The position numbers and the translations under genes are program-made. Shown in pieces: positions 121 through 29,258 of a stretch of 41,656 nucleotides of DNA. Every line of letters begins with the position of its first letter. The stretch's first letter is position 1. The stretch covers positions 1-41,656 of the forward strand of contig CAYFXO010000005.1 in assembly GCA_964347125.1 (NCBI GenBank). The letters run 5' to 3'. The DNA is from an uncultured Methanomassiliicoccales archaeon. Lineage in GTDB: Archaea > Thermoplasmatota > Thermoplasmata > RBG-16-68-12 > CAYFXO01. The notes below the pieces were generated by a model. It was not told the origin of the DNA, ran no database searches, and was given only the letters and a program-made list of their open reading frames with translations.

Positions 121-1047
121 ATGCTGGAGTGGCTCTCCTCGAAGCTCGCCATGATGGTGGCGGCGGTCATCATCCTGGCGTCCGTCATCGGGTTCTTCGT
201 CCTCACCAACGAGAACTTCAAGATCGTGGAGCTGCAGAACGCCGCGGACCGGGTAGCGGCGGCTGTCAACGATGTGGGGGGTCTCGCCGCGGTCACGACG
301 GTGCGGGTGGGCTTCGACCCGGACGACCCGGCGGCCCAGTACGTCCTCCCGCGGACGGTGGGCGGCGAGGACTACGCCATTGAGTTCTCCCCGACCCTCG
401 TGTTCGTCCATCGCGGGGGGGTGACAGTCCGGGCGCACCTGAGCCACGCCATCCACATCTGGAACCCCGGGGACATGCACCGGGCCTCGGCGGCGCAGCT
501 CGCCCTCGCCGATGCCCAGTTCGTAAGCTTCCGCCTCCCCGCGGGGACGGCCTTCGACATCGTGCGGCGGGACATGGTCCCGGCGGGGTACCAGACCTTC
601 GTGTACAACCCCGCCACGGAGGACCTCCAGGCCCTGGCGAACGCCCACGCCGCGGAGATCGACGCCTTCACCGCCTACGCGTTCGACGGGGTCACGGAGG
701 ACTGGAACGAGACGGCGCCGCGGGCCGCCCCAGCGGGGGTGGACGCCATGCACCTCTACCCAACGATGTTCCTCCTCGAGCGGGACGGACTGCGGGTCGT
801 CCACTTCATGGAGGTCCGCCACATCTGGGACCCGGCGGCCGAGATTCCCGGCGCGGGCCACTGGCGCACCACCGCCGCGGAGCTGAACGCCGTGGACAAC
901 GCCACGCCCATCCCCGTGACGCTGGGCCCGGGGGCGGCCTACAGCCTGGAGCGGAAGGAGCTGGAGCTCACGGACCGGCCCCTGACGAACCCTCCCAAGG
1001 ACCCGCCGGAGTACGAGCACGTGTTGGAGTACTTCCTGTACGCCTAG
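121..1047 (+). CDS. Hypothetical surface protein with a pilin-like N-terminal hydrophobic head (308 aa)
   Basis: ATG at 121 with GGAGG at 110-114. Balanced composition and G/C third positions; the antisense ORF 85..1020 is R/G/P-rich. N-terminus MLEWLSSKLAMMVAAVIILASVIGFFVL is a short polar head plus a ~20-aa hydrophobic helix. No catalytic motif recognised. Confidence 0.7.
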   Translation: MLEWLSSKLAMMVAAVIILASVIGFFVLTNENFKIVELQNAADRVAAAVNDVGGLAAVTTVRVGFDPDDPAAQYVLPRTVGGEDYAIEFSPTLVFVHRGGVTVRAHLSHAIHIWNPGDMHRASAAQLALADAQFVSFRLPAGTAFDIVRRDMVPAGYQTFVYNPATEDLQALANAHAAEIDAFTAYAFDGVTEDWNETAPRAAPAGVDAMHLYPTMFLLERDGLRVVHFMEVRHIWDPAAEIPGAGHWRTTAAELNAVDNATPIPVTLGPGAAYSLERKELELTDRPLTNPPKDPPEYEHVLEYFLYA

Positions 1048-4000
1048 AGGCCCCCGCGGATCTCATAGAGGGAGACCTTGATGAGCCACAGGCTGATCTG
1101 CGCCCCCTCCTCCGCCTTGTAGCCGAACAGGGTGTCCGCGATGGACGCGGGGAAGCCCTCGATGTACACGCCGAAGTCCAGGCGCCAGCGCCCCCAGTCC
1201 TTCCCGATGAGGGCGGCGAAGAGGGGGAGGTTCGCCTGGATCAGGACGACGAACGTGACCTGGGTGGGGACCTCCCCCGCCATGGATTCGGGGACGGCGC
1301 CCCGGACGGAGGCGGGGACCCCGACGATGAGGTAACCCTCCAACCGGATGAACATGTGCTCCGGGACGCTCCGGGGGATGGTCGGGAAGGCCTGGGGGTT
1401 GTTGGGGGTCGTGAGATTGTGGAGGAAGGTCTTGAGGACGTCCACGAGCCAGCGGAGGAGGTCCGCGAGGCCGACGCCGTCGATGACGAAGGAGAGGCGG
1501 AAGCCGCCCCCCGCGGCGCCCTGGGTGCCGAAGGGGGAGATGGCCACGTCCACGTAGAAGAGGACCTCGATGACGATCTTCTCGATGAGGTCCAGGACCT
1601 TATCGATGAACTTCTCGATGACGGATCGGAGGAACTCCCCGACGAACTCCAGGGAGAAGGCCATCCGGTCCTGGAGCTCGAACCAGGTCTCCAGGAAGGC
1701 GTCCTTGAGGGCTCCGATGATGAGGGCCTTGATGTCCAGGGTCTTCTGGCCCGGGTTCGCCTCCCCCGGGGTCGCGGCCCCGAGGATCCACCGGGGGCCC
1801 CCGTCGTACTCCCGCTGGTACGTGAGGGCGGAATCCCAGGCGTTCCACTCGAAGCCCTCGAAGACGTACGCGAAGACCCGGTCGTCCTTCCTCAAGGGCG
1901 TGCGGTCCAGGAGCTCCCCGCCCGGGTCGTAGAGGAAGATCCCGTCCCCCGGGTCCAGGTAGTAGTCCATCATGGTGTCCAGCTGGTTGAGGATGCCCCC
2001 GGGGTCGATGGTCCACGTCCAGGACGGCGGCGTGGGGAGGCCGGTGACGTTCACGTGGAGGTAGCCCGGCCCCGCCTGGGTGCGCCAGGGGACGGTGTCG
2101 CCTGTTGAGAACGAATGGAGGAGGTCGCCGTTCGCGGTGCGGAGGGCGTACCCCACGAGGGGCTTCCCGCCGAAGGTGGCGGGGTTGCCGTCCCACCACT
2201 CCGGATTGAGGAGCTCGACCCACTGGGACCCCGCCGCGGGGGTCATCTCGAACTCGTTGATGGCGAGGGCGGTGACGACGGGGGAGTGGTACTTGATCTT
2301 CACCCCCAGGTCCACCGAGGCCTCCACGCCCAGGGGCGGGATGGGGATGGTGGGCTTCCAGCCCAGGACGTCACTGAGGGCCCAGCCCACCTCCTTGTAT
2401 TCCTCCAGATAGGGCATGTACCAGTCGAAGCCCCAGCCGTTCCCCTTGGCGTCCATGGAGGTGATGTGGAGCTCGCCGAGGTGGGGGAAGACGAGCATCA
2501 GCGGGTCGATGCGGAGGGTGACGAAGGTGCCGTCCCCAATGGTGATGTTCCCCACGCCCAGGACGTCCCACTCGGAGTCGCGGATGGGGGCGGGGAAGCG
2601 GTAGAAGGCGACCTCGAAGTCCACGTCGGCGCCGAAGGCCTCGCCCTCGAGGCTGATGATGAGCTCCCGGGGGTTCGTGTCCCCCGGGTCCTCCGGGGCC
2701 TCGAAGCGGAGGTAGAGGCCGAAGATCGGGATGACGAGGGCGTCGCCGACGAGCGCGTCCGCTAGGTCGCCGATCCAGTCGATGAGCTTCGAGACGAGGT
2801 CGACGATCCAGCCCAGGACGCTGTTGAGGACGTACTTGATGAACTTCTGGACCATGGAGACGACGAAGTCGATGGCCTCGACGATCAGCTTCACGATCTG
2901 CATCGCGAACTTGATCAGGGTCCCGATGACGTCCTGGAAGAAGGCGACGATCTTCGCGAAGAAGTCGATGATGTCCATGATGGGGTCGCCGATGACCTCC
3001 CAGACCTCCCGGAGGAGCCGGAGGATGAGGTCCGTGAAGTCCGACCACACCGTGTTCGAGAGGCGGTACTCCACGGTGGCCAGGGGCCATCCGGAGAAGA
3101 CGGCGACATTCACGGAGAACGCGAGGGTGACGGTGTCGTTGTACCACTGGTGGCCGTCCGTGCCCCGGTCAAGGATGGCTCGGCTCTCCGGGCGGGTGTG
3201 GAAGTCCACCTCCCCCAGGACGGAGACGTTCCACGTGGTCTCGTAGGGGCGGGTGCTGATTTCGTTGACGGCGGTGTAGTGCACGCCCACGGGCGGGCCG
3301 ATTTGGACGCGGACCGCCCCGTGGGGCGCGGGGGTCGCCGGGGTGATGGGGCCGGCCACGGCCTCCAGGAATTCATCGTCCTGCTCCAGGTGGAGGCGCT
3401 CGTAGCGGATCGTGTGCTGCGCGAGGGCCTGGGGGTGGCTCCCCACGTAGAAGTCGAAGGGCACCTCCATCTCCGTGGGCTGGAAGTACTCCGAGTTCGC
3501 CGCCTCCGCGTTGTAAAGGGTGTCCCGGGCGACGCGGACGAGGAAGTCCCGGAGGAGGTCGATGAGGCCCGTGCCGTGCATCACGTTGGCGGCGACGTCG
3601 GCGATGGCGTTGACGATCATCCCCGCGAGGCCGTCCACGTCGTCGAACATGAGGTAGTCCATGGCCTGGACCAGGACGCCGTCGTTCGGGTTCACCTCCG
3701 TCTGCATGGGGTCCGCGTCGCCCACTTCGCGGGCGCGTAGGACCGCGTAGGCGGCGTCCACTTCCTCCCCGAGGCGGCCCCGCAGGTCAGGGACGTACTG
3801 CCCGGTCCCGTTCACGTTCCCATCCCGGAAGAGGCCCGCGAGCACCGGGGGGGTGATGACGATGGGGGAGGCCCAGGCCAGGGAGGCGTCGTAGGCCGAG
3901 GTGTTGGCGACGAACTCCGACTGGACCACGTTCGTGGCCGCGACGGCGTCCCCCGCCAAGGCGTCCGCGAAGGCCCGGATGACCGCGGTGCGCTGGGCGG

Positions 4001-6113
4001 GCCACCCCGTGAAGAGGTCGTACCCCGACCGGAGGTAGTCCCGCAGGTCGCGGAACAGATCGATGCTCTTCTCAATCAGCTCCTTGATGAGCTGCTTGAC
4101 GAGGCCCTTGTGCTCCCGGTAGTAGGTGAAGATGTCGTTGAGGGCCCGCTCCACCTCCCGCGTGATCTCGCGGAGGAAGGAGGTGGTGTCCTCCGGGTTG
4201 ATGGGGATGCGCCCCTTCTGGAGCGGCAGGGCGCTCTCCAGGAGGAATCGGTGGTCCCAGACGAGGTCCTTCACGAGGCCGACCATGTGGTTGGCGACGG
4301 CGGTCACGACGCGGACGGCGGTCTCCCGGATGCCCTCGATGCGGCTCTTCCCGGGAGTGTCGTAGTAGGTGTCGTAGAACAGCTTCCACAGGGGCGACTT
4401 CGAGTCCGTCCACACGGGGGAGAAGGGGACCTCCCGGTCCGCGCCCGACACCGTCGCGGTGACGTTGAAGTGGACGTAGTCGTAGCCCACGATCGCCTCC
4501 GCCCCGTGGGACGCGTTGAGGCCGCGGTGGGCGGGCTCGCTGCCGTTCGTGTACCACGTGTGGTTGTCCGCGGTCTGGCGAACGACCCACTCGAGGAAGT
4601 AGGGGCCCTCGGAGACGTTGGCCCGCGGGTATGCGTCGATGACCCCCCCGCGGTAGGAGTCCCACTTCGAGCCCGACCGGTCGCGCACCATGAGCTGGAA
4701 GAGGCCGTTGGAGCCCAGGCCCGCCTTCTTCGCCGTGTCCTTGAGGAACGGCCGGAGGAGGTCGTGGTACCAGTCCGGGTCGCAGTCCGTGAACTGGCAC
4801 TTCACCCAGTCCACGACATCGTTGATGGTGTTCCAGAGGAGCTGGAGCCCCTTCCAGATGGCGTCCAGGATGGGCATCGCGAAGAAGTAGTCGAAGAACT
4901 TCAGCAGGAACTGGTCGATGATCACGTAGAAGCCCTGGGCGACCATGGCCTCCAGGTTAATCTGGAAGGTGTCGTTCGCCCCCATCCCCGTGTAGAGGGC
5001 GACGATGTCCGCGGCGTCCAGGGTGCCCCGGTCCACGTAGGTATCCAGGAGGTCCTGGATGCCCACGCCGGGGAGGCGCGGGAACTCCGCCGCCCCGGCG
5101 TCGTACCCCGCGTCGATGGCCCCGGGGACGTCCGCGTCGTAGGTGCGGTAGTGCTTCGCCACGGACAGCAGGAGGGCGAGGTTCACCGCCAGCTCCACGT
5201 CCTTGAGGGTGAGGAGGGCGGCGGTGTTCCCCCAGCGGATGGGGTCGGCCGTGAGGTTGTCCAGGGTCGTGTCCACCTTGATGGCGCCCGTCTGGTTGTC
5301 CCGCATCTCGGGGATGCCCATCATCCCGTAGCCCTGGAGGACGCGGTACTGGGCGACGGTCGTGAGGATGAACTTCGTCATCCGGGCGACCTCGGAGTTG
5401 GTGCCCTCCGCCGCGGTCTCGAAGTTCGCGAACTTCGTCTTCAGCAGGGGGTAGGGGTTGTCCACGAGGCGGTCGAACCCGAGGGTCTTCGAGAGGGTCA
5501 GGCCCCGCTCCGCGTCGGTCAGGGTGACGTCAAGGTGGCCCGTGACGCGGTAGTACGCGGTGGTGTTCACTTCCCGCAGGACGCCGCCGATCTTGTTGCT
5601 GAGCTTGTCCGGGTCGCCCTTCACCTGGCTGTGGTAGGCCTCGGAGGACTCCACGTTCTCGTAGGCTTGGGTCACCCCGCTGGGCGGCACCAGGTCGTGG
5701 CTCAGCTTCTGGTCGTAGAAGACGTCCGCGAGCCAGCCGTCGAGCCGGACGGTGAGGTCCCCCTCCGTGAAGGGGAAGCGGGTCGCGGCGTACTGGGAGA
5801 AGAACGACTGGAAGGTCTCGTTGATGAGGGCCTCGTCGTCCTCCTCCCCGGGGCCCGTGCCGTTCATGAGGGCGAGGGCGACGGCGCGCATGGCGCCGAA
5901 GTAGGCCTGGCTCTCCACCTCGTCCCGGAGGGTCTCGGCGGCGCGATCCAGGGCCTCCACCCCGAGGCGCTCCCGCTGGGAGATGAGGGCGTCGCGGTTC
6001 GCCGTGGTGATGAACACCGCGGAGACGCCCGCGAGGAGCAGGATGATGGCGGCGATGAGGGCGAAGGGGACGCGCCCCCGGGTGTCGTCGGCCAGGCGGG
6101 CCCGCCCGGGCAT
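1044..6113 (-). CDS. Giant (1689 aa) membrane-anchored/secreted protein of unknown function with a lamin-tail domain and amphipathic helical repeat blocks
   Basis: Track ORF 1044..7157 is over-extended: its first ~348 codons are R/G/P-rich and overlap two better same-strand genes. The real start is ATG at 6113 (cat 6111-6113), overlapping the TGA of the upstream gene (ATGA). N-terminus MPGRARLADDTRGRVPFALIAAIILLLAGVSAVFI is a charged head plus a hydrophobic helix. The rest has normal protein composition. Confidence 0.85.
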   Translation of the reverse strand: MPGRARLADDTRGRVPFALIAAIILLLAGVSAVFITTANRDALISQRERLGVEALDRAAETLRDEVESQAYFGAMRAVALALMNGTGPGEEDDEALINETFQSFFSQYAATRFPFTEGDLTVRLDGWLADVFYDQKLSHDLVPPSGVTQAYENVESSEAYHSQVKGDPDKLSNKIGGVLREVNTTAYYRVTGHLDVTLTDAERGLTLSKTLGFDRLVDNPYPLLKTKFANFETAAEGTNSEVARMTKFILTTVAQYRVLQGYGMMGIPEMRDNQTGAIKVDTTLDNLTADPIRWGNTAALLTLKDVELAVNLALLLSVAKHYRTYDADVPGAIDAGYDAGAAEFPRLPGVGIQDLLDTYVDRGTLDAADIVALYTGMGANDTFQINLEAMVAQGFYVIIDQFLLKFFDYFFAMPILDAIWKGLQLLWNTINDVVDWVKCQFTDCDPDWYHDLLRPFLKDTAKKAGLGSNGLFQLMVRDRSGSKWDSYRGGVIDAYPRANVSEGPYFLEWVVRQTADNHTWYTNGSEPAHRGLNASHGAEAIVGYDYVHFNVTATVSGADREVPFSPVWTDSKSPLWKLFYDTYYDTPGKSRIEGIRETAVRVVTAVANHMVGLVKDLVWDHRFLLESALPLQKGRIPINPEDTTSFLREITREVERALNDIFTYYREHKGLVKQLIKELIEKSIDLFRDLRDYLRSGYDLFTGWPAQRTAVIRAFADALAGDAVAATNVVQSEFVANTSAYDASLAWASPIVITPPVLAGLFRDGNVNGTGQYVPDLRGRLGEEVDAAYAVLRAREVGDADPMQTEVNPNDGVLVQAMDYLMFDDVDGLAGMIVNAIADVAANVMHGTGLIDLLRDFLVRVARDTLYNAEAANSEYFQPTEMEVPFDFYVGSHPQALAQHTIRYERLHLEQDDEFLEAVAGPITPATPAPHGAVRVQIGPPVGVHYTAVNEISTRPYETTWNVSVLGEVDFHTRPESRAILDRGTDGHQWYNDTVTLAFSVNVAVFSGWPLATVEYRLSNTVWSDFTDLILRLLREVWEVIGDPIMDIIDFFAKIVAFFQDVIGTLIKFAMQIVKLIVEAIDFVVSMVQKFIKYVLNSVLGWIVDLVSKLIDWIGDLADALVGDALVIPIFGLYLRFEAPEDPGDTNPRELIISLEGEAFGADVDFEVAFYRFPAPIRDSEWDVLGVGNITIGDGTFVTLRIDPLMLVFPHLGELHITSMDAKGNGWGFDWYMPYLEEYKEVGWALSDVLGWKPTIPIPPLGVEASVDLGVKIKYHSPVVTALAINEFEMTPAAGSQWVELLNPEWWDGNPATFGGKPLVGYALRTANGDLLHSFSTGDTVPWRTQAGPGYLHVNVTGLPTPPSWTWTIDPGGILNQLDTMMDYYLDPGDGIFLYDPGGELLDRTPLRKDDRVFAYVFEGFEWNAWDSALTYQREYDGGPRWILGAATPGEANPGQKTLDIKALIIGALKDAFLETWFELQDRMAFSLEFVGEFLRSVIEKFIDKVLDLIEKIVIEVLFYVDVAISPFGTQGAAGGGFRLSFVIDGVGLADLLRWLVDVLKTFLHNLTTPNNPQAFPTIPRSVPEHMFIRLEGYLIVGVPASVRGAVPESMAGEVPTQVTFVVLIQANLPLFAALIGKDWGRWRLDFGVYIEGFPASIADTLFGYKAEEGAQISLWLIKVSLYEIRGGL
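1755..2275 (-). other. Lamin-tail-domain (LTD)-like segment within the giant protein
   Basis: ALAINEFEMTPAAGSQWVELLNP ... LTYQREYDGGPRWILGAATPGEANPG matches the LTD hallmarks: an INE start, (E/Q)WVEL(Y/L)N, and a terminal S/T-Y-x-R ... W ... TPG-x-x-N. Confidence 0.6.
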
Positions 6114-6673
6114 CAGCGGACCCTCCAGAGGTAGAACTCCAGGGTGGCCTCCCCGGGCTTCCCGACGCTGAGCATGGAGGCGGTGAGGCTCGCGGCGAAC
6201 CGCTCCGCGGGGAGGGAGTCCGACGTCTGGAGGCCGACGTCGGAGACCGCGACGAGGTGGCTCCCGCCGGGGCCCTCGTAGGCCGCGAAGAGGGCGTAGT
6301 GGTACCGGGCCGTGTCCACGGCGGCGGACACCTCCGCGAGGAGGGCGTCCTCGTACCGCCCGGCGCCGTCGAAGCTCGCGGCGGGCACGCCGTCGTCGAG
6401 GAGGCGCAGCTCGTCCAGGAGGAGGTCCTCCACGGACCGGTCCCGCTTCGTCACCACGTTCCCCGCCAAGTCCACGTAGCTCGCCTCGCGCACGGAGGCC
6501 TCGAGGAGGGTGTCGAAGACCTCCCGGGAGTACCGGAAGTCGTCCTCGTTCCGCACGACCTCGCCGATGTTGAGGGCCAGGAGGGTGTAGGTGAAGATCA
6601 GGGTGGCCGCCACGAGCATGATGACCAGGAACATCACGGCGTCGAAGACGGACAGCTGGGCCTGGCGGTTCAT
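6113..6673 (-). CDS. Hypothetical pilin-like-headed protein (186 aa)
   Basis: ATG at 6673, 3 nt after the stop of the upstream gene. Its TGA (6113-6115) overlaps the giant gene's ATG. N-terminus MNRQAQLSVFDAVMFLVIMLVAATLIFTYTLLAL. Confidence 0.8.
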   Translation of the reverse strand: MNRQAQLSVFDAVMFLVIMLVAATLIFTYTLLALNIGEVVRNEDDFRYSREVFDTLLEASVREASYVDLAGNVVTKRDRSVEDLLLDELRLLDDGVPAASFDGAGRYEDALLAEVSAAVDTARYHYALFAAYEGPGGSHLVAVSDVGLQTSDSLPAERFAASLTASMLSVGKPGEATLEFYLWRVR

Positions 6674-6676
6674 TCC

Positions 6677-7147
6677 CTACCTCCACACGGTCACGATGAG
6701 GCGGCCCGCGTGGACCTGGTCGCTGTTGTTCCGGATCGTGACGGGGGACGTCACCGCCACGCGGGAGGCGCCCTCGGGGAGGGCCTCCCCGGCGCTCCAC
6801 TCGTACTTCCCCGGGTAGGTGCTCACGTCCACGACCCGCAGGTTCCAGTGCAGGCCCACCATGTCCGGGTGGAAATCGATGGCCATCTGGGCCGCGGTGG
6901 AGTCGTTCAGCGCCCCCGCGGAGAACTTCCCCTCCTCCCCGTTCACCGTGAGCGGCCCGTACGTGCGCACGCTCTCCGAGAACTCCACGGCGTTCTCGTG
7001 GAACCGGAGCTGGGCGAGGTACTCGCCGTACGCCGCGTAGGCCCCGGCGATGCTCAGCAAGAAGACGACGACGCCCACCAGCACGACGAGGAGCGCGGGC
7101 AGGTCCTCGAAGAACCCCGCGATGCCCACGCGGTTCCACCCTCCCAT
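6677..7147 (-). CDS. Hypothetical pilin-like-headed protein (156 aa)
   Basis: ATG at 7147 lies ~25-31 nt downstream of a TATA-like box (minus-strand TATTTAG, 7172-7178). N-terminus MGGWNRVGIAGFFEDLPALLVVLVGVVVFLLSIAG, then a beta-rich C-terminal part. Confidence 0.8.
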   Translation of the reverse strand: MGGWNRVGIAGFFEDLPALLVVLVGVVVFLLSIAGAYAAYGEYLAQLRFHENAVEFSESVRTYGPLTVNGEEGKFSAGALNDSTAAQMAIDFHPDMVGLHWNLRVVDVSTYPGKYEWSAGEALPEGASRVAVTSPVTIRNNSDQVHAGRLIVTVWR

Positions 7148-7171
7148 TGCCCGTCAATCCGAGCCTCCACT

Positions 7172-7178
7172 AAATACA
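7172..7178 (-). promoter_or_regulatory. TATA-like box for the minus-strand operon 7147..1044
   Basis: Minus strand reads TATTTAG, 25-31 nt upstream of ATG 7147 (leaderless geometry). Confidence 0.45.
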
Positions 7179-7201
7179 TTGCGGGGGGGCCCGACAAACG
7201 G

Positions 7202-7209
7202 TTATATAG
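7202..7209 (+). promoter_or_regulatory. TATA box for the plus-strand pair 7241..8182
   Basis: TTATATAG. The expected TSS near 7230-7235 lies just upstream of the in-frame GTG at 7241. Confidence 0.5.
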
Positions 7210-7240
7210 CGTCACCCGAATGCGCGGCCGGGGTGGTCCA

Positions 7241-7684
7241 GTGGGCGTTCCACAGGGTCCGTTCAGGCGTCTGGGGGGAGACCGAGCGGGGGCGTTGGAG
7301 GGGATGCCCCTCCAGCTCATCATCCTCGTCGTCATCGCGGGCATCGCCATCGCGATCATCGTGGCGTGGCTCACGATCTTCAGCGCGGCGGACCTGGCGC
7401 GCCTGGAGAAGACCTCCCCGACGGACGTGACGGATGCGACGACCAGCATCACGGTCAAGGCGTGGGACACGAACGGGAACCCGTTGAGCGGCGTCACCGT
7501 CACCATGGAGGGGTGCAACGTCGTGAAGGCGGGGACGACGGGAGGCGACGGGGCGTACACCGCCTCGGGCCTCAACATCCAGATCCCGGGCGGGAGCAAC
7601 TTCTGCACGATTACCGTGACGGGGACCTACACGGGGAACGTCGCGGTGACGAAGACCGCGAGCATCACCGTCGCCCGCTCCTGA
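7241..7684 (+). CDS. Small pilin-like-headed protein with a C-terminal beta-sandwich (Big/CarboxypepD_reg-like) domain
   Basis: Lies in the frame of track ORF 6257..7684, whose upstream part is artefact. Candidate starts are ATG 7220, GTG 7241 and ATG 7304; GTG 7241 fits the TATA spacing. Head DRAGALEGMPLQLIILVVIAGIAIAIIVAW is paralogous to the next gene. C-terminus is ITVKAWDTNGNPLSGVTVTMEG...TTGGDGAYTAS. Confidence 0.7.
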   Translation: MGVPQGPFRRLGGDRAGALEGMPLQLIILVVIAGIAIAIIVAWLTIFSAADLARLEKTSPTDVTDATTSITVKAWDTNGNPLSGVTVTMEGCNVVKAGTTGGDGAYTASGLNIQIPGGSNFCTITVTGTYTGNVAVTKTASITVARS

Positions 7685-7702
7685 GGCGGGGGCCGCGACG
7701 CC

Positions 7703-8182
7703 ATGCGGTTCCCTCGCGACCGTCGGGGGCTCGAGGGCCTTCCCCTGCAGCTCCTCATCATCCTTGTCATCCTCGGAATCTCGCTGCCGGTCATCTTCGC
7801 CACGTGGATGAACGTGGACGCGGCCTCCACGGAAGGGCGGGTCCAGGCAGAGGTGGAGCGCCTCGCCGCGGAGGTGGAGCAGGCCTACGCCTACGGCCCG
7901 GGGACGGGGCTTCGGGTGAACCGGGTTGACTTCTCCTCCGGCACCTTCTCCCCCGTGGAGTACGTGCGCATCGGCGACGACCCGGCGAAGAGCGCGGCGG
8001 CCCTCATCCGGTTCAAGCTCGGCGCCCAGGCGGAGCGCACCGTCATAATCCCTCGGGAGGTGCCCGTCACATCCCCCGGCGGGGTCACGTTCACCGTGGG
8101 CCCCGGCGTCTACGACTTCCTGCTGGAGACGGTGCGGGGCCCGGGGGGCCAGATCTACGTGGTCATCTCCCGCGCCCCCTAG
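7703..8182 (+). CDS. Small pilin-like-headed protein (159 aa), paralogous head to the preceding gene
   Basis: ATG at 7703. N-terminus MRFPRDRRGLEGLPLQLLIILVILGISLPVIFATW is a basic head, G, then a hydrophobic helix. Confidence 0.8.
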   Translation: MRFPRDRRGLEGLPLQLLIILVILGISLPVIFATWMNVDAASTEGRVQAEVERLAAEVEQAYAYGPGTGLRVNRVDFSSGTFSPVEYVRIGDDPAKSAAALIRFKLGAQAERTVIIPREVPVTSPGGVTFTVGPGVYDFLLETVRGPGGQIYVVISRAP

Positions 8183-8217: not shown

Positions 8218-8631
8218 GTGGGGACATCTGCGGTGAACGAAGACCTCCAGGGGCTCAAGGAGTTCCACGGCCACCTGGGGCCCTACGTCGTGGTGGGCTG
8301 GCGGATGGCGAAGCTCGCCGTGGAGCGCCTCGGAGACGACTTCAAGGGCGCGGTGCGCACGGGCACGGACCCGCCCATGTCCTGCATCATCGACGGCATC
8401 CAGTGGGGCTCCCCCTGCACCGTGGGGCGGGGGAACTTGGCCATCTGGAACGAACGGCGGCCCGAGGCGATCTTCCGGAATGACAGCACCCGTCTGGAGA
8501 TCCGCCTCCTCCCGGCCATGTGGCGGGCCATCGAGGACGAGATGACCTCGGACACGGAGGAGGACCTGGCGGCGCGCCTCTACGACCGCCCGACGGGCGA
8601 GCTGTTCCACGTGATCGAGAAGCCCGCCTAG
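8218..8631 (+). CDS. FmdE-domain protein (formylmethanofuran dehydrogenase subunit E-like)
   Basis: GTG start. FHGHLGPYVVVGWRMA matches the FmdE-family FHGHxxPxxxxGxRM motif. 137 aa. Confidence 0.75.
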   Translation: MGTSAVNEDLQGLKEFHGHLGPYVVVGWRMAKLAVERLGDDFKGAVRTGTDPPMSCIIDGIQWGSPCTVGRGNLAIWNERRPEAIFRNDSTRLEIRLLPAMWRAIEDEMTSDTEEDLAARLYDRPTGELFHVIEKPA

Positions 8632-11600
8632 AACGTGATAGTGAAGGGCGGCTGGTCGCCCGTCACGAGCACCCAGTACCCGAAGCCGTTCGTCATCAGG
8701 TCCGCCGCCCCGAGCTGCTGGAGGTAGTAGGGCGCGGTGCCCGTGTCGTAGCCCTCCACCCGCTCCCACGAGACGGCCCCGAGGACGCTCCCCACCGCGT
8801 CGTCCGTCATGGACGCGTACCCGATGAGGTTCCATCCGTCGCACAGGCTCACCTGGGTGGAGGTGGGCACGGTGCCCGCCACGGTCCAGAGGCCCGCGGA
8901 GAGGCTGTCCACCCAGTACCCCGCGTCCCGGGATACGGTGGCGAGGGTGTTCGTCTGCTTCCCCACGTCGTAGGAAACCCACTCCTGGCTGCCGCAGGCG
9001 TCGAAGGCCTTCACCCAGCGGTACTCCGCGGTCCCGAAGACGGCGGTCACCGAGGGGTCCGCGGGCTGGATGGGTACGGAGACGAGCTGCGGGCCCGCTT
9101 GGAGCATCCGGGTGTACTTCGCCGCCTGGCCGGCGCACGCGCTGTCGCCCGCCGCGTTGGTGGCCAGGACGCAGTAGAAGTAGCTGTTCGGGTCCCCGTC
9201 CCCGGCGCCGCTGTGGGTGAAGGACGCCACGCCGCCCGCCACGGATCCCAGGAAGACGTAGGTCGCCGTGGAGGCGTCGTAGGTCGTCCCAAACCACACT
9301 TCGTAGTTCAGTACGTCCGGCTCGGAGATGGACAGGTCCCACTGGATCAGGACGTCCCCGGAGGCCACTCCGACGAGGGACGCCCGGACGTTCGTGGGCG
9401 CCTGGGGCGGCACGGGGCCGGTGCCGAGGACCTCGAAGGAGAGGCTCTGGAAGGGCCCCCAGTTCCCCCACTCGTCCTGGCCGTGGACGTAGAGGGTGTG
9501 GGTCCCGCCCGACCAGGGGGCGGCGGGGGTGGACCACTCCACGTCTTCCGCCGAGGAGGTGGGCGGGTTGACCAGGCTCATGGGGGTGCCGGTGCCGTCC
9601 GCCCCCGTGGCGTCGATGAAGAACTCCGCCGGGGTGATGGCGTGCACGTCGGATGCGCCCTTCAGGGAGTCGTCCACGGTGGCCGCGAAGGTGAGGGCGG
9701 CGCCCTGGGTCGCCGGGTTCGGGGAAAGGGTGACGCTCCCGGGCACGACGACGGGCCCCTGGGCATCCCCGCCGGGGCGGGTGATGCAGAAGTCCCCGTT
9801 GGAGGCGTCCGTGCCGTTCAGGGAGGGGATCCCGTTGTCCTGGGCGACGACCCTCACCTGGTAGCCACACCCGTTGGGGAGGCTTGAGATGTCCCACGCG
9901 TAGCTCCGCGGGGCAGCGCCGAGGGGCGCGATGAAGAACCAGGACTGGCCGGAGTTGGGGCTGTAGTACACCCCCTGGGTGTTTACGTTCGTCCCGCCGT
10001 AGGTGGTCACGTTCCAGTAGATGTTCGCCACATTGCCGGAGAAGGTCTCACCTCCATTCGGGTAAGACACCGTCAAGTCGGGGTGGTCCCGCTGGTCAAG
10101 TAGCCACTGGATCGTCTTGTCCATGACCTCGTTCCGGGTCGCATCGTTGTCCGTCTGGTAGTTCATCCCAGAGAACTCGAAGAAGTTCACCACGAGCTTC
10201 GAGAGCATCCCACCCCACACGCCGATGCCGAACGTGCCGTTGGGAAGGGAAGAGGTCCACTGGAGCCCCACGGTTCCGGGAATGCCGTCCTCCGTATCCC
10301 CGAAGTCCTCCCAGATGTCCTCCGTCGTGCCCCCGGCGGCGAGCATGGCCACCTCGTCCCCGGACCCGCCGTCCCGATGGGGCTCGTAGGGGATGCGGTT
10401 CACGCCGAGGTAGGCGCCGCTGATGAAGCGGCCGGAGACGCCCTGCATCTCTAGCCAGCGCTGGGGATCTTGGAGCCAATCGGCCTTCATGGTGGAATGC
10501 AGCCAGGCGTCCGTGCTGGCGTCGGAATACTCTTCGTTATTCGGCGCGTCCGTGTCGAAGCCCCAGGCCACGTCGTGAGAGGAGACGTAGAGACGGCCGC
10601 CGTTGTCCAGGTAGTCCGTGAGGAGTTGCCGCGAGGACGGCTCGAAGGGCGGGTATTGCTCCAGGCCCACCTGCCATGCTACAACCTTGTACTCCTGGAG
10701 GACGCTCAGGGGCGGGTCGCCGCTCCGCTCCACGTGCCAGAGATTGTAGGACCAGGCATAGGCATCGAAGGCGTCCCCGTAGTGCCCGATGCGGTCGGGG
10801 AGAATCGTGCTGTCGCCAATGACCAAGAGAATCTCGCCCTTCTCCGTCGTGGTGAAGGAGTAGTGGGCGCCGCCGTTGTCGTCCCGGGTGCTGTGGCCGA
10901 ACCAGTCTGTCGACTCGACATCGAAGAAGTATTGGGTTCCTGTCTCGAGGCTGATGAGGTCCACGGCGTGGTCCACCTGAAGGGCGGCGAGGGAGACGCT
11001 CCCCAGCTCCAGCCCCGTGGTCTTCCCGTAGTACACGACGGAGTCCGAGGGCTCGTCCGTGTCCCAGGTGACGGTGGCGGCGGCGTTCGTGATGTCGATG
11101 ACCTGGACGCCCGTGACCCGGGGGCCTGCGGCGTCGATGATCGCGTCGGCGGTGGCGGTGTGGACGGGGCTGACATCCGAGTAGGACGCAGTGACCGTAT
11201 CACCGTGGTGCACCTGCAGGACGCCGTCCGCGGCCACCGCCCCGAAGGCGGTGGTGATTGTGCCCTGCCAGAGGCCGGAGCCACCGACAGTCTCGGCGAG
11301 GCTGACGACCTCCGGGGTCGTCTCCGTCGTGCTCGTCATACTGACCTGCACGGAGGCGGCGTTGGTATCCTGCACGCGGATCGTGATGGTGTCGGATTCG
11401 CTGTACACCTCCCGGTCCATGAAGACTTGCCCCCAGCCGAGGTCGAGGTCCGCGAGGACCACGAGGGCGAAGGGCTGTGGGCCCGCGGGGACGTTCGCGC
11501 CGGTAATGGTGACTGTCCACTGGCCCGCGGACGCCAGAGGCGCGGGGAGGTAGACAGTTTCGACCGGGTGGGTCGCGTCGAAGCCCCCGCCAGTAACGGA

Positions 11601-13871
11601 GTATCCCTGCTGGAAGTTCCCGAAGAAGTTCCCCTTGTAGCTCGTGCTCAGAGGGGATGTCACCAAGAGGTCTAGGTTGTTCACAAGGGCAGAGTCCGTC
11701 CCGACGGATGCGGGGTAGTCGGACCACACCAGGGCGGCCTTGAAGCCCGCCAACGGTGAAGCCGCCCAGAAGCTGTAGGTGACGGATTGGCCCGTGTTCA
11801 GACCCTCCTTGTGCTCCACGACGCCCAGCTTCCGGCTCTCCCCGCTGAAATAGAGGGCGTTGTCCAGGACGGGGCGGCCCCAGCCCTGGGACCAGTTGGG
11901 CCACTTGAACTGGTTCTTGCTGTCCGAGTACTGGCCCGTCATCTGCTCCGCGGAGGCCACGAGCATGGCCTTCACGAGGGCGGCGGACGGGAGGAGGGTG
12001 TTCCCGGGGAGGGCGACGCCGTTGGGGTAGTAGCCGTCCGCGAAGTACTGGCGGATCATCGCGGCGGAGCCGGCGATGGCGGGGGCGGAGTAGCTCGTCC
12101 CCGTCCAGCCCTGCTCCCCGCCCGTGTTGCCGTTGGAGCCCGGGTCGCCGTCGGACTCCGCAGAGGTCCCCGAGAAGGGGGCCATGACCGTCGGCTTCGT
12201 CCGGCCATCCACCGTGGGGCCGCGACTGCTGCTGCCGTGGACGGCGTTCTGGCTCGCGTAGGCCACGGTGCCGCCCACAGAGACGGCGCTCTTCGCCGTC
12301 GCGGGGCTCCCAGCGTCGTGGGGGTCGGAGGACGTGGGCCCGCCGTTCCCGTTGGAGAAGATGATGAGCATGTCCTGGTTCTCCCACATGAACTTGTCCA
12401 CCATCATCGCCTCCAGGTCGTAGTCGGAGTTCTGGGAGCCCCAGCTGTTGGTGTGAATCCGCACCCCGTCGTTGTAGGGGAAGCTGAAGAGGAGCTCGTA
12501 GTCGTCGGGGATGTACCGGAGGATGTCGTCCCAGGCGTTCCCCAGGCGGGGGTTCTGCCCCACGGTGCCGATGTCCTGGACCCAGATCTTGGCCCCCTTC
12601 GCGACGCCGTCGTTGTTGCTGCCGGCGACGGGGTCGTCATTCCCCGCGGCGACGCTGGAGACGAGGGTGCCGTGGCCGGTGGTGCAGTTGTTGAGGAAGA
12701 AACAGTCGAAGCCGCTCTTCCAATCGCTGTCGCGGGTCGCGTAGATGTCCTTCGACGGGTCGACGCCCTGGGACCAGCTCATGGGCATGTAGCGGATGAC
12801 CTTCCGGTGGGTCGGGTTGGTGACATTGTCCACACTCCCGATCTGGGCGGGGCTCTGCCGGAACTGGTTGTGGTCGTAGTCCAGTCCCGTGTCGGCGACG
12901 GCGATGAGCTGGCCTGTGCCGTCGATGCCGTAGCTGTTCCAGAGCTTCCTCGCCGAGGGGTCGCCGATGGGAATCGTGTTCCCCGAGAGGTTCGTCTGCA
13001 TGACGGCCTGGGTCTCGTAGTTCGTGAGGCGCATCTCCTCCCAGGGCTCGACGTACTGGACGACCCGAAGGTTGGCGATCATCGGGAGGAGGTCCGCCGG
13101 GAGGCGGGCCTTCACGACCCCGAAGCTGGCCGCGACGGTGGAGCGGACGATGCCGGGGTTCGCGAGGTCGTCGTAGTCTACCCAGCCCATACCGGCCTTC
13201 CCCAGGGCGGCCAGGACGGGGCCGAGGGACTCGCCGCCGAACGTGATGACCTTGACTTCAACGAGGCCCGCCGCCTCCCGGAGGCGCGGCTGGATCTTGT
13301 AGGCGGGCTGGTAGGGACCGTGCCACCCCACGAAGGGGAGGTCGTCCAAGGCCGCGGGGACGGGCCCCCGGAAGTCCACGATGAATGCGCTGGTGGGCAC
13401 GTAGTCGAGGACGCGCCCGCCGAGGCGCTCCACGGCGTGGACCCACGAGTCCTTCACGGGTCCGATGAACTGCACCAGGTGGTAGCCCCACTCCCGCTCC
13501 AGGGCCGCGGGGACGCGGAGGTCGGAGGGAAGGTCCGGCTCCCCCCCTTGGGTGTCGAACTCGTAGCCGTCGATGCCGATACGTCCCGCGGGGAACGGCT
13601 GGACGAAAGCCCCCAGCCGCTCCAGGCTCGCCACCTGGCTCTCTGTGACTTCGGCGAGGAGGAAGGCGTGGTACTCCACCAGGGGGTCCGGGACCAGGGC
13701 GCGGAGGTCCGCCTGCGCCGCGAGGTCGGGAGCGAAGACGAGGGCGGTCTGCACCGGGTCCTCCTCGCTGCCCGCCCGACCCGCGTGAATCGCGAGGGCG
13801 GAGAGAACGAGGACGATCGCGACGGTGACGGTCGAAAACCTGACGATACCTGCCCCTAGGCGCTGCCGCAT
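8628..13871 (-). CDS. Secreted multidomain subtilisin-like serine protease (peptidase S8), 1747 aa
   Basis: ATG at 13871 with GGAGGAGG 7-14 nt upstream. Signal/anchor VTVAIVLVLSALAIHAG. Catalytic triad motifs appear in S8 order: AVADTGLDYDH (Asp), TTGHGTLVSS (His), GTSYSAPAIAGSAA (Ser). Downstream are Fn3-like segments (VTWDTDEPSDSVVYYG; NVRASLVG..WDLS..YEVWFG) and several Ig-like segments. Confidence 0.9.
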   Translation of the reverse strand: MRQRLGAGIVRFSTVTVAIVLVLSALAIHAGRAGSEEDPVQTALVFAPDLAAQADLRALVPDPLVEYHAFLLAEVTESQVASLERLGAFVQPFPAGRIGIDGYEFDTQGGEPDLPSDLRVPAALEREWGYHLVQFIGPVKDSWVHAVERLGGRVLDYVPTSAFIVDFRGPVPAALDDLPFVGWHGPYQPAYKIQPRLREAAGLVEVKVITFGGESLGPVLAALGKAGMGWVDYDDLANPGIVRSTVAASFGVVKARLPADLLPMIANLRVVQYVEPWEEMRLTNYETQAVMQTNLSGNTIPIGDPSARKLWNSYGIDGTGQLIAVADTGLDYDHNQFRQSPAQIGSVDNVTNPTHRKVIRYMPMSWSQGVDPSKDIYATRDSDWKSGFDCFFLNNCTTGHGTLVSSVAAGNDDPVAGSNNDGVAKGAKIWVQDIGTVGQNPRLGNAWDDILRYIPDDYELLFSFPYNDGVRIHTNSWGSQNSDYDLEAMMVDKFMWENQDMLIIFSNGNGGPTSSDPHDAGSPATAKSAVSVGGTVAYASQNAVHGSSSRGPTVDGRTKPTVMAPFSGTSAESDGDPGSNGNTGGEQGWTGTSYSAPAIAGSAAMIRQYFADGYYPNGVALPGNTLLPSAALVKAMLVASAEQMTGQYSDSKNQFKWPNWSQGWGRPVLDNALYFSGESRKLGVVEHKEGLNTGQSVTYSFWAASPLAGFKAALVWSDYPASVGTDSALVNNLDLLVTSPLSTSYKGNFFGNFQQGYSVTGGGFDATHPVETVYLPAPLASAGQWTVTITGANVPAGPQPFALVVLADLDLGWGQVFMDREVYSESDTITIRVQDTNAASVQVSMTSTTETTPEVVSLAETVGGSGLWQGTITTAFGAVAADGVLQVHHGDTVTASYSDVSPVHTATADAIIDAAGPRVTGVQVIDITNAAATVTWDTDEPSDSVVYYGKTTGLELGSVSLAALQVDHAVDLISLETGTQYFFDVESTDWFGHSTRDDNGGAHYSFTTTEKGEILLVIGDSTILPDRIGHYGDAFDAYAWSYNLWHVERSGDPPLSVLQEYKVVAWQVGLEQYPPFEPSSRQLLTDYLDNGGRLYVSSHDVAWGFDTDAPNNEEYSDASTDAWLHSTMKADWLQDPQRWLEMQGVSGRFISGAYLGVNRIPYEPHRDGGSGDEVAMLAAGGTTEDIWEDFGDTEDGIPGTVGLQWTSSLPNGTFGIGVWGGMLSKLVVNFFEFSGMNYQTDNDATRNEVMDKTIQWLLDQRDHPDLTVSYPNGGETFSGNVANIYWNVTTYGGTNVNTQGVYYSPNSGQSWFFIAPLGAAPRSYAWDISSLPNGCGYQVRVVAQDNGIPSLNGTDASNGDFCITRPGGDAQGPVVVPGSVTLSPNPATQGAALTFAATVDDSLKGASDVHAITPAEFFIDATGADGTGTPMSLVNPPTSSAEDVEWSTPAAPWSGGTHTLYVHGQDEWGNWGPFQSLSFEVLGTGPVPPQAPTNVRASLVGVASGDVLIQWDLSISEPDVLNYEVWFGTTYDASTATYVFLGSVAGGVASFTHSGAGDGDPNSYFYCVLATNAAGDSACAGQAAKYTRMLQAGPQLVSVPIQPADPSVTAVFGTAEYRWVKAFDACGSQEWVSYDVGKQTNTLATVSRDAGYWVDSLSAGLWTVAGTVPTSTQVSLCDGWNLIGYASMTDDAVGSVLGAVSWERVEGYDTGTAPYYLQQLGAADLMTNGFGYWVLVTGDQPPFTITF

Positions 13872-23295: not shown

Positions 23296-23416
23296 CATCA
23301 TCCAGTTAGCCGGGGCTCGATGCTCGGGTATCCCCTAGAAGCGCTCCCAGAGCGACCGAGCGTCGGTGCCCTGGGCCGTCCGCGGTCCGCGGCGCCGTGG
23401 GACTAGGAGGAATGGA

Positions 23417-26236: not shown

Positions 26237-26263
26237 GCTCCCTCTCCCCCTCTCAACCTTTTT
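26227..26263 (+). terminator. Stem-loop spanning the stop codon of copy 1, followed by a T5 run (possible partial terminator/attenuator between the two binding-protein genes)
   Basis: GAGGGAG-TAGG-CTCCCTC (26227-26244) is a perfect 7-bp stem. A pyrimidine-rich tail follows, with TTTTT at 26259-26263. Confidence 0.35.
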
Positions 26264-26302
26264 CCCCTCTTTCGGTCATCCAGGGGAAAGGGAGGAGTGG
26301 AC

Positions 26303-29225: not shown

Positions 29226-29258
29226 GGCAGGGATTATGAGAACGGGGAGGCGGGCCCC

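Follow-up and report, generated by a model that had tools for sequence, protein, structure and literature searches.

In a window of 41,656 nucleotides from an uncultured Methanomassiliicoccales archaeon (contig CAYFXO010000005.1), six genes lie together at positions 121-8182, and we put forward, with a probability of roughly 0.5, that they encode a set of type IV pilin-like surface proteins specific to Thermoplasmatota, which probably builds an adhesive filament or tip complex. The set is conserved, and the module has not been described before. A preliminary description of this DNA had proposed a surface-filament/adhesion module, and that proposal stands in part: counted in its favor are a class III signal layout with a conserved G/A site, the predicted fold of one small protein (p156), the start of the model of a 1689-aa giant, the helix plus Ig-like domain of two others (p147 and p159), the recurrence of the module, and the precedent for pilins whose machinery acts in trans; counted against it are the lack of machinery in cis, the Foldseek results, a loosely kept charged residue at -2, the +1 residue of the giant, and p308, which is leaderless.

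Gene structure and promoter region

All six coding sequences are real and sit where they were first placed (open reading frame list of the window; Table 1), each with a single hydrophobic segment at its N-terminus. High GC3 (0.88-0.99) backs the frames of five, and this filter did not separate out p147 as its own frame. The start of p147 is ambiguous, the gene caller having taken ATG 7304 (126 aa, P0068), and GTG 7241 is preferred here because the peptide upstream of ATG 7304 is kept in most of ~100 homologues. Translational coupling, claimed for the minus-strand genes, holds at both junctions and needs correction in form at one of them: p156 and p186 are indeed separated by 3 nt (6674-6676), and the p186/giant overlap, reported as ATGA, is TGATG, with the p186 stop at 6115-6113 and the giant ATG at 6113-6111 sharing 1 nt. 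GGAGG-like motifs precede both downstream starts (p186 and giant), and at its far end the giant converges on p308, with CTAG at 1044-1047 common to both.

Archaeal TATA boxes lie ~26 nt ahead of the transcription start. The 93-bp divergent spacer, read directly, does hold the two TATA-like boxes announced for it, TAAATACA (7171-7178, leaving 27 nt to the p156 ATG) and TTATATAG (7202-7209), both standing out in 68% GC DNA. Their distances to the two start codons, the p156 ATG and GTG 7241, agree with such a placement.

Table 1. Features of the gene cluster and its downstream neighbor (positions in the window).
Feature	Position	Strand	Description
p308	121..1047	+	308 aa
giant	1044..6113	-	1689 aa
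giant LTD segment	1893..2270	-	aa ~1282-1407, via alignment to homologues
giant helical hairpin	2757..3047	-	aa ~1023-1119, hydrophobic/amphipathic, like the helical repeat region of phage tape measures
giant leader + hydrophobic domain	6006..6113	-	aa 1-36, candidate class III signal
p186	6113..6673	-	186 aa
p156	6677..7147	-	156 aa
divergent spacer	7148..7240		intergenic, two AT-rich TATA-like boxes
p147	7241..7684	+	147 aa
p159	7703..8182	+	159 aa
S8 protease	8628..13871	-	1747 aa, subtilisin-like, Pfam Peptidase_S8 E 4.3e-34, Sec-type signal

A module conserved across Thermoplasmatota

Co-occurrence of homologues in other archaeal genomes had been named as a check on the module, and it is found at ~130 Thermoplasmatota loci, in which the families recur as three units: p147 paired with p159, p156-p186 as an operon that may include the giant, and p308 as a partner. 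The p147-p159 pair is in tandem in most of 80 loci; in 11-12 other loci p156-p186 precedes the giant, with p186 directly adjoining and co-oriented in 11, and p186 stands beside p156 without the giant in L043 and L047-50; in ~14 loci a p308 homologue sits directly downstream of the giant and converges on it, and in L064, L074, L077 and L079 p159 is followed in tandem by a short p308 of ~170 aa. The units also meet one another, with p156/p186 within 10 kb of the p147-p159 pair in L043, L047-50, L065, L066, L070, L071 and L075, several of these arrangements apart from L043 being directly divergent, and with all six families together in L070. Complete genomes bearing the module include CP070767.1, CP070629.1 and OY970070.1, the p147 family is present in Methanomassiliicoccaceae MAGs, and the six families were seen only in records named Thermoplasmatota or synonyms.

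These neighborhoods already contradict the idea that unrelated small membrane proteins with ordinary signal anchors happen to surround a large surface protein, which we regard as very improbable: lone N-terminal hydrophobic segments are common, and the profile matches to named families are all below threshold, but the same families regroup in varying order and orientation across many divergent Thermoplasmatota, translational coupling is present, and p147 and p159 are paralogues in the head region.

N-terminal heads

Class III signals have G, A or S at -1, a charged residue at -2 and a cleavage site ahead of the hydrophobic domain (PMC4371748). Such heads had been claimed for all six proteins, and five carry a short leader with a conserved small residue directly ahead of a hydrophobic helix of ~20 residues (a slash marks the putative cleavage site): ...GGDRAG/ALEGMPLQLIILVVIAGIAI in p147, MRFPRDRRG/LEGLPLQLLIILVILGISL in p159, MGGWNRVG/IAGFFEDLPALLVVLVG in p156, MNRQA/QLSVFDAVMFLVIM in p186, and DDTRG/RVPFALIAA in the giant, whose charged leader of 13 aa has G as its last residue. 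The sixth, p308, is rejected as a class III precursor, being without any leader and beginning directly with its hydrophobic helix (MLEWLSSK-LAMMVAAVIILASVIGFF); this N-terminus is conserved in its family as M[LI][DE][WY]LxSK.

Directly ahead of the helix, G or A is found in 91-100% of the homologues counted in families other than p186, namely in 15/15 giant proteins and 29/29 giant locus ORFs with the motif (38 ORFs in all), in 40/41 p156 homologues, and in 73/80 or 80/80 members of the p147/p159 family, depending on which of the two neighboring small-residue columns counts as -1. The giant thus does possess the pilin-like head first ascribed to it, with F at +4 in 15/15 proteins and an atypical R, K or T at +1. 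Conserved acidic or proline positions follow the site, with E at +6 (45/46) and P at +9 (46/46) in p156 and an invariant E-G-x-P-L in p147/p159 (80/80). The p186 family motif, [RK]x[GA]/Q..hhD, resembles an EppA-type site (known sites are RAQI and KGQV; PMC4371748), the [GA]/Q site being found in 12/19 homologues. The charged -2 rule, in turn, is followed by only 53-78% of family members (32/41 in p156) and, among the five candidates in the window, strictly by the giant and p159 only. The shared heads go beyond chance, since their motifs are kept across homologues of 20-35% identity and other secreted proteins of the window have ordinary Sec- or RR-type signals.

A possible but less probable alternative is a surface complex anchored in the membrane and independent of pilus machinery, in which the six proteins together make up a fixed envelope structure (scaffold, cell-cell contact site or glycocalyx organizer) of these mostly wall-less archaea. 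Their N-terminal helices would then be signal anchors that stay uncleaved, and the residues conserved ahead of and inside the helices would help these pack against one another in the membrane. Against this speak the near-invariance of G/A at the helix start in four families that are otherwise ~25% identical, the +1 Gln of p186, invariant where the motif is found, and the acidic residues at +2 to +7, a pattern that marks peptidase and assembly sites and not generic anchors, as well as the predicted pilin arrangement of p156.

The view that none of the six can be assigned to a characterized family is confirmed. Known pilin models of Pfam and NCBIfam (Pilin_N, Class_IIIsignal, DUF361-type) gave no match at E<=1, matches to the uncharacterized Pfam families DUF7285/7287, DUF7286 and DUF7266 are below curated cut-offs and that of p159 to DUF7311, likewise uncharacterized, is at threshold, and the literature searched makes no mention of any of these DUFs.

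Predicted folds and domains

The AlphaFold2 (AF2) model of p156, a family of 251 clusters (50% identity, E<=1e-3), has a pLDDT of 90.8 and consists of a 52-residue helix (10-61) beginning right behind the putative cleavage site and then a four-stranded antiparallel sheet preceded by a short alpha/beta loop, a layout like that of bacterial pilins, so that a pilin-type helix-plus-sheet fold is predicted with high confidence. Foldseek with this model returned no pilin and no significant PDB match (best E 0.02, ribosomal uS3), an outcome that favors the anchored complex. By profile, the match of p156 covers the C-terminal half of DUF7285, p186 has no match in Pfam or PDB, and p308 matches DUF7266 only, weakly (E 0.036).

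The p147/p159 search yielded 107 clusters. Behind its head, p147 has an Ig-like domain with weak Pfam matches to Big_1, CarboxypepD_reg and MG4, and p159 matches DUF7311 over its full length (E 8.5e-6, 26.8 bits, cut-off 27), with PF23993.3 entered for it in the precomputed table, and, at its N-terminus, weakly GspH (E 0.0024). Against PDB, a four-sequence profile of the family weakly matches Thermus thermophilus PilA5 (E 0.019) and PAK pilin, and an 80-sequence profile, also weakly, C5 MG domains (E 0.003), archaeal 8fk7 (E 0.011) and AapB 8q30 (E 0.11). The family architecture, as read from sequence, is a helix plus an Ig-like domain, as in archaeal pilins, and p147 is a candidate filament subunit.

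Behind its helix the giant continues as a large acidic extracellular body, and its family (18 protein clusters, 30 genome loci) is Thermoplasmatota throughout. The AF2 model of residues 1-1200 (pLDDT 62.6) starts with a 66-residue helix followed by long beta hairpins at pLDDT 80-90; Foldseek found no match for it in PDB or BFVD, and on this model the giant corresponds to no known fold. No PilY1 or DUF2341 match was reported against Pfam at E<=1, and DUF7286 is matched by the N-terminal ~56 residues only (56/1000 profile positions). The lamin tail domain (LTD) segment had been noticed at the outset; aligned homologues pass Pfam LTD (P0007, E 1.1e-9), and the window's own sequence gives no match to it at E<=1. 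The helical hairpin, modeled with low confidence as two long helices (1023-1063 and 1071-1119), matches the PDB profiles of the monocin tape measure FtbJ (9j1k_J, E 4.4e-13; PMC11830787) and 6v8i, and residues 1005-1157 are matched by five PHROG tape-measure families (best 1e-6); this match may be compositional, since a designed helical bundle also scores against the hairpin.

Pilus machinery and proposed assembly

The window contains no assembly machinery, as originally reported: no T2SSE ATPase, T2SSF protein or A24 peptidase appears among 26 ORFs compared with Pfam (the six cluster genes at E<=1 and 20 others at E<=0.001, a few short ORFs being left out). Nor is there a T2SSE-type ATPase motif within ~10 kb of any homologue (~125 loci), or an A24 motif, by a simple, unvalidated pattern, in ~123 loci, and the three Pfam families are missing from the called genes of 16 loci with precomputed Pfam tables and from the top 25 of 73 families listed for flank P-loop ORFs. 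Any tie to the machinery of type IV pili is thus one of analogy only. These results suit a membrane-anchored complex, as do the setting of the loci among housekeeping genes (RNA polymerase, ribosomal proteins, IF-2) and the leaderless p308; furthermore, three Methanomassiliicoccus-type genomes have no pilus ATPase at all (PMC4858521), which, together with p147 in Methanomassiliicoccaceae MAGs, counts against assuming machinery dependence. Pilins encoded far from their machinery are normal in archaea, including Thermoplasmatales with a distance of ~500 kb (PMC4858521; PMC12448462), and loci for archaeal type IV filaments often include large adhesin-like proteins (bioRxiv 10.64898/2026.04.22.720090).

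What the analysis shows is the structure of the genes, the conservation of their motifs and of the module, and a pilin-type fold predicted for p156; for the type IV pilin-like reading we infer that leaders are cleaved, that the proteins assemble with some as major and others as minor subunits, and that the product adheres, most probably as follows. The proteins would be inserted by Sec, the leaders of p147, p159, p156, p186 and the giant would be trimmed by a PibD/EppA-type prepilin peptidase encoded elsewhere, and the N-terminal helices would pack into a bundle that a PilB/PilC-type machine, encoded in trans, could extrude, giving a thin filament or else a short pseudopilus. The repeating subunit would be Ig-like p147, with p159, p308, p156 and p186 as minor or priming subunits, and the giant may sit at the filament tip as an adhesin whose LTD and hydrophobic helical hairpin touch a surface or another cell.

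Comparison with known systems

The closest parallels are found in euryarchaeal pilin sets ('system 2'/clade 2, Makarova 2016) and the EppA-processed Epd pilins of Methanococcus, which share several small short-leader proteins with G/A at -1 and a hydrophobic helix, a +1 Gln as in p186, Ig-like or beta-rich heads, pilin genes apart from those for ATPase and platform, and a large adhesin-like partner. Unlike these, the cluster has head motifs of its own (GFxEELP, LEGxPLQL, GRVPFA), families confined to Thermoplasmatota-named records, and no machinery-bearing locus among those found.

The likeness first drawn to a minor-pilin/PilY1 complex is a reasonable working analogy and does not extend to membership. 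As in the priming complexes of PilY1 (T4aP) and GspH-I-J-K (T2SS), about four small pilin-like proteins and one giant partner have their genes side by side and translationally coupled. However, PilY1 has an ordinary signal peptide, unlike the giant with its pilin-like head, and sequence relation to the bacterial complexes goes no further than the weak p159-GspH match. With phage tape-measure proteins the likeness is confined to the ~100-residue hairpin, whereas the rest of the giant and of the locus is not phage-like.

Neighboring genes

The gene seen to enter from upstream of position 1 encodes an LTD+VWA protein, 963 aa or more in length, and ends at window position 46; on the other side lies the S8 protease. 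It is improbable, though conceivable, that the small proteins form a short pseudopilus or bindosome-like device that holds or releases these large exoproteins, on the pattern of the pseudopilins of type II secretion or of the bindosome in Sulfolobus. S8 proteases of ~1,750 aa, sometimes duplicated, adjoin the p147-p159 pair in the window and in L004, L043 and L046-L050, and VWA proteins are known pilus-associated components (PMC4858521), which would suit such a device. However, the protease, a recurrent neighbor whose membership in the module is uncertain, accompanies the pair in the closest relatives alone (p147 E 1e-42 to 1e-46), which may reflect simple lineage synteny; it is absent from most loci, its signal is of the ordinary Sec type, and the partnership of p156 and p186 with the giant is conserved more widely.

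A recurring set of six protein families

All six coding sequences that the preliminary description had placed at 121-8182 are present there (the proteins are named by length in amino acids, with the largest called the giant), and the frames of five are backed by a third-position GC of 0.88-0.99; p147 was not separated as its own frame by the GC filter. Each of the six proteins carries one N-terminal hydrophobic segment, and the bodies are acidic to near-neutral (pI 4.4-6.3). When the module was mapped by phmmer over the six-frame ORFs of homologous loci, the co-occurrence that had been raised as a question proved real, since the six families recur together across archaeal genomes in varying arrangement. 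The p156 and p186 genes lie directly upstream of the giant and co-oriented with it in 11-12 other loci, in about 14 loci p308 comes next downstream of the giant and converges on it, and p147 and p159 form a tandem in most of the 80 p147/p159 loci. Also, p156/p186 sit within 10 kb of the p147-p159 pair in L047-L050, L065, L066, L070, L071 and L075, several of these being directly divergent; L070 holds all six families in a different order, L043 has p156/p186 near the pair and no giant, and in one metagenome-assembled genome (MAG) the module is split between two contigs, with the pair in L045 and the p156-p186-giant operon in L027. Neighborhoods that recur and yet are rearranged imply that the six families are functionally linked but modular. 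Chance clustering of the six genes is excluded. In L064, L074, L077 and L079, p159 and a short form of p308 stand in tandem, in that order.

Giant homologues fall into 18 protein clusters from sources named Thermoplasmata or Thermoplasmatota, and into 30 loci in one-genome-per-species contigs, all of them Thermoplasmata, Methanomassiliicoccales or similar MAGs by name. The p147/p159 search gave 107 protein clusters and, in genomes, 95 confirmed loci of which 80 were kept, with Thermoplasmatota-type names or the broader Methanobacteriota, Euryarchaeota and euryarchaeote; the p156 family comprises 251 clusters at 50% identity in an exhaustive HMMER search (E<=1e-3) and 47 in a word-indexed profile search, the latter being unnamed Thermoplasmatota proteins without a Pfam domain. 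No functional name is carried by the homologues of the giant, p156 or p147/p159. Pfam and NCBIfam scans of the six proteins returned sub-threshold DUF matches only, in keeping with the earlier statement that no named family could be assigned, and by these profiles the module belongs to none; DUF7311 (PF23993) alone was matched at about threshold, by p159 (26.8 bits, cut-off 27, covering profile positions 14-149 of 150; PF23993.3 is also listed for it in the precomputed Pfam table). The matched DUF families are named in no paper of the searchable library, and the accessible portions of two archaeal type IV filament surveys mention no module of this kind. The module is well founded and conserved over a wide range of genomes, has not been described before and stands out for its giant component; its mechanism would be drawn by analogy. 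Six linked protein families are defined here, five of which lack a Pfam model. Members of the Thermoplasmatota abound in sediments, oceans, guts and acidic sites; most are without a cultured representative, and little is known of their surface biology.

Coordinates of the module and of neighboring features (window positions unless a homologous locus, L001 etc., is named)
Feature	Position	Strand	Description
LTD+VWA protein	L001 117-3008, with its end at window position 46		LTD-like N-terminus, VWA domain
p308	121-1047	+	308 aa ORF
giant	1044-6113	-	1689 aa ORF
giant/p308 3' overlap	1044-1047; L004 15088-15091; L010 9570-9573; L005 13753-13767		CTAG in the window
tape-measure-like helical hairpin of giant	2757-3047	-	aa ~1023-1119
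p186	6113-6673	-	186 aa ORF
p156	6677-7147	-	156 aa ORF
p147/p156-type start sites affected by internal-start calls	7241-7304 and 7129-7147
TATA-like box TAAATACA	7171-7178
TATA-like box TTATATAG	7202-7209
p147	7241-7684	+	147 aa ORF
p159	7703-8182	+	159 aa ORF
S8 protease	8628-13871	-	~1,750 aa, Sec-type signal
S8 protease elsewhere	L004 2217-7484; L043 10936-20447; L047/L049/L050
311-aa protein	22286-23221	+	Big_1-like and winged-helix domains
ABC transporter operon	23366-36716	+	oligopeptide type
166-aa HExxH protein	L043 8312-8815	-	cytoplasmic-looking

Gene junctions and start sites

The minus-strand genes had been described as coupled through an ATGA overlap and a 3-nt gap. The gap between p156 and p186 is there (GGA at 6674-6676), and so is an overlap between p186 and the giant, which is 1 nt through TGATG (stop 6115-6113, ATG 6113-6111) rather than ATGA; GGAGG-like motifs precede the starts of both p186 and the giant. 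At the other end, the giant and p308 are convergent with stop codons that share CTAG, and since relatives as distant as L005 and L010 retain an overlap of the two 3' ends, termination may be coupled or control may be by antisense. The 93-bp divergent spacer between p156 and p147 is GC-rich apart from the two TATA-like boxes reported for it, TAAATACA and TTATATAG, the former lying 27 nt from the p156 ATG. In archaea the TATA box usually precedes the transcription start by about 26 nt, and because of this spacing the GTG at 7241 is plausibly the start of p147 in preference to the ATG at 7220, which would be too near the TTATATAG box for use. Automatic gene calls often begin at internal start codons and drop the leaders (protein clusters P0023, P0068, P0096 and P0104); since the deleted leader peptide is conserved, the longer starts are right, and the leader-less calls hide p147- and p156-type proteins from class III signal-peptide screens.

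Prepilin-like heads

The archaeal prepilin site, at which PibD, FlaK or EppA would cleave, is defined in FlaFind-type criteria by G, A or S at -1 and a charged residue at -2, near the N-terminus and ahead of the hydrophobic domain, and the substrates of the peptidase EppA carry Gln at +1, with known sites RAQI and KGQV/L/I (PMC4371748). Of the class III layout that had been claimed for all six heads (a short charged or polar head, often ending in G or A, then a hydrophobic stretch), the small residue at -1 before the helix is present in five proteins and their families, as G or A, and is missing in p308, whose family lacks a leader and opens with M[LI][DE][WY]LxSK. Further positions are conserved in p156 (E at +6 in 45/46, P at +9 in 46/46), in p147/p159 (E, G, P and L invariant, 80/80), in the giant (F at +4 in 15/15) and in p186, where Q stands at +1 in all 12 motif-bearing sequences. 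In the window itself the -2 residue is charged in the giant and p159 (R in both), and is V in p156, Q in p186 and A in p147, these three having their charge at -3 instead. Elsewhere in the window the signals of exported proteins are of the ordinary kind, Sec-type in the S8 (subtilisin-like) protease and RR-type in two solute-binding proteins.

N-terminal signatures of the leader-bearing families (a slash marks the proposed site)
Family	Signature	G/A at -1	Charged -2
p156	MxxW[DN]Rx[GA]/[VI][AG]GFxE[ED]LP...	40/41	32/41
p147/p159	[DE][RK]G[AG][LVI]EG[LM]PL...	73/80 or 80/80, varying with the choice between two adjacent small-residue columns	~42/80
giant	D..[GA]/[RKT][VI][PS]F[AS]...	15/15 proteins; 29/29 loci ORFs (motif-bearing, out of 38)	11/15 and 17/29
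p186	[RK].[GA]/Q..hhD	motif in 12/19 distinct sequences	8/12

The type IV pilin fold is a long N-terminal alpha-helix with a beta-rich head packing on the C-terminal half of that helix. The p156 model, built on 47 homologues with a pLDDT of 90.8, begins its helix (10-61) just past the proposed site and continues through a short alpha/beta loop into four antiparallel strands, and this predicted layout is that of a type IV pilin. Foldseek comparison of the model with the PDB returned no pilin and no significant match (best E 0.02, ribosomal uS3), and the p156 sequence profile reached PilE1 at E 0.45. Against DUF7285/DUF7287, p156 scored 21.6 bits (cut-off 27) with its C-terminal half alone, and weak DUF7285 matches occur in 8 of 58 distant relatives (best E 2e-4). 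A profile-profile comparison of p156 with p186 aligned the last 19 residues alone, at a probability of 14%, which does not establish paralogy. The p147/p159 profiles match Ig-like and MG domains, and filament subunits weakly; a four-sequence profile gave weak PDB matches to Thermus thermophilus PilA5 (E 0.019) and the PAK pilin, and an 80-sequence profile matched complement C5 MG domains at E 0.003 and, weakly, the archaeal filament subunit 8fk7 (E 0.011) and the Aap pilin 8q30 (E 0.11).

Considering the heads, the predicted p156 layout and the analogy with known filaments, I would put at about one in two the probability of the best-supported reading, that the module is a lineage-specific type IV pilin-like set, in which p147 would be an Ig-like subunit, p159, p308, p156 and p186 accessory or minor subunits and the giant a pilin-headed adhesin, with a prepilin peptidase cutting the leaders and a machine carrying out assembly, both of which would be encoded elsewhere in the genome. 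Should cleavage and assembly take place, the known archaeal type IV filaments would gain a candidate adhesin and a filament or tip complex specific to this lineage.

Assembly machinery

The window had been said to hold no assembly ATPase, platform protein or prepilin peptidase, and 26 of its ORFs compared with Pfam (the six cluster coding sequences at E<=1 and 20 others at E<=0.001, together all but a few short ones) gave no such match. The T2SSE Walker A plus Asp box motif was found in none of 43 sources and in none of 80 further loci (1.2 Mb), likewise with a looser pattern, for about 125 loci with flanks of about 10 kb overall; an A24 peptidase motif, which is simple and not validated against a known sequence, was found nowhere in the flanks of the same loci, and in 16 loci with precomputed tables no called gene has a T2SSE, T2SSF or A24 Pfam family. 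For flanking P-loop ORFs of 350 aa or more, the best 25 of 73 Pfam families are of the ABC, GTPase, AAA, Cdc6, MCM and SRP54 kinds, with no T2SSE, T2SSF or A24 among them. In the loci searched, the module shows no genomic link in cis to PilB/ArlI, PilC/ArlJ or a prepilin peptidase.

This absence removes the sole genomic evidence able to tie the module to a pilus machine, and it is here that the main rival reading comes in, a membrane-anchored complex whose pilin-like helices would undergo neither cleavage nor ATP-driven assembly, which would put the pilin head to a novel use outside pilus machinery and which I consider rather unlikely. A pilus role is not refuted by missing cis machinery because archaeal pilins, according to the accessible part of one survey, are often encoded in trans (PMC4858521), and the pilins of Cuniculiplasma lie about 500 kb from their machinery (PMC12448462). 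The accessible part of the same survey, by Makarova et al., also reports three Methanomassiliicoccus-type genomes without a secretion ATPase (PMC4858521); the p147 family is present in Methanomassiliicoccaceae and Methanomethylophilaceae MAGs, and a p147-family search aimed at cultured Methanomassiliicoccus, reported to be without pilus ATPases, returned MAGs only.

The giant protein

A model of residues 1-1200 of the giant, of moderate quality (pLDDT 62.6), opens with an N-terminal helix of 66 residues and also contains helical bundles, a long helical hairpin and extended beta hairpins, the last at pLDDT 80-90; these residues found no significant match by Foldseek in the PDB or BFVD. Against DUF7286 (PF23957) the giant scores 17.7 bits (cut-off 27) over positions 1-56 of 1000 alone; 4 of 5 matching homologues cover just the first 38-66 positions, and protein cluster P0013 matches positions 3-269, sub-threshold. 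The helical hairpin matches the monocin tape measure FtbJ in the PDB (E 4.4e-13), and five PHROG tape-measure families match aa ~1005-1157 (best E 1e-6). Since a designed helical bundle also scores against the hairpin, this similarity may be generic to helical repeats. The hairpin could be membrane-active or form a coiled coil, or the resemblance could be one of composition. A second stretch similar to it lies near aa 1460-1510. The giant was rejected as a phage tape-measure protein, the match being limited to aa ~1005-1157 and the neighbors being cellular genes; a mobile-element or phage origin of the locus, which this segment had suggested, was likewise rejected, as the locus sits among housekeeping genes and keeps its synteny from genome to genome.

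Further along, a lamin tail domain (LTD, PF00932) is assigned to aa ~1282-1407 by alignment to homologues that pass Pfam (P0007 at 39.1 bits, cut-off 34.3, with precomputed LTD for P0006-P0009), the giant of the window itself falling short of E<=1. The likeness to a PilY1/minor-pilin complex that had been suggested survives as a working resemblance of the module to the sets of minor pilins plus adhesin found in type IV filaments of bacteria and archaea. For the PilY1 part of it, the giant has no Pfam match to the PilY1 C-terminal beta-propeller or DUF2341 at E<=1, and no structural match over the modeled residues 1-1200 of its 1689. The hairpin and LTD also enter into a different and improbable reading, in which the module would be a self-contained, Thermoplasmatota-wide apparatus outside any type IV pilus machine, its pilin-like helices bundling without an ATPase and the hairpin and LTD of the giant contacting or penetrating the membrane of another cell. 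If true, such an ATPase-free apparatus would serve cell-cell bridging, fusion or exchange, and a pilin-derived device of this sort would be a new principle.

Neighboring genes

The gene seen running into the window from upstream, read on another assembly of the same organism, encodes the LTD+VWA protein of at least 963 aa, and VWA proteins are listed in the accessible part of one survey among known pilus-associated components (PMC4858521). The S8 protease adjoins the p147-p159 pair in the window and in seven related loci, and is tandemly duplicated in several of these; this neighborhood could reflect lineage synteny or a functional partner, and a pseudopilus serving the protease is in my view very improbable. 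The C-terminal regions of the S8 and VWA proteins match marginally (29% over 94 aa, pairwise E 0.008).

Downstream, the oligopeptide-type ABC transporter operon encodes a 1,082-aa permease with a PQQ-like beta-propeller insert and two solute-binding proteins of unusual length, 956 and 937 aa, that consist of SBP_bac_5 plus Big_1 and bear RR-type signals. In the 311-aa protein, a hydrophobic segment at the N-terminus and an Ig domain resembling Big_1 occur together with two DNA-binding domains of the winged-helix type (HTH_HVO_0163_N and MarR-like), an odd architecture for a membrane-anchored regulator. In L043, where the giant is missing, the gene next to p156-p186 encodes the 166-aa protein with an HExxH motif (HVLLHEYLHALG).
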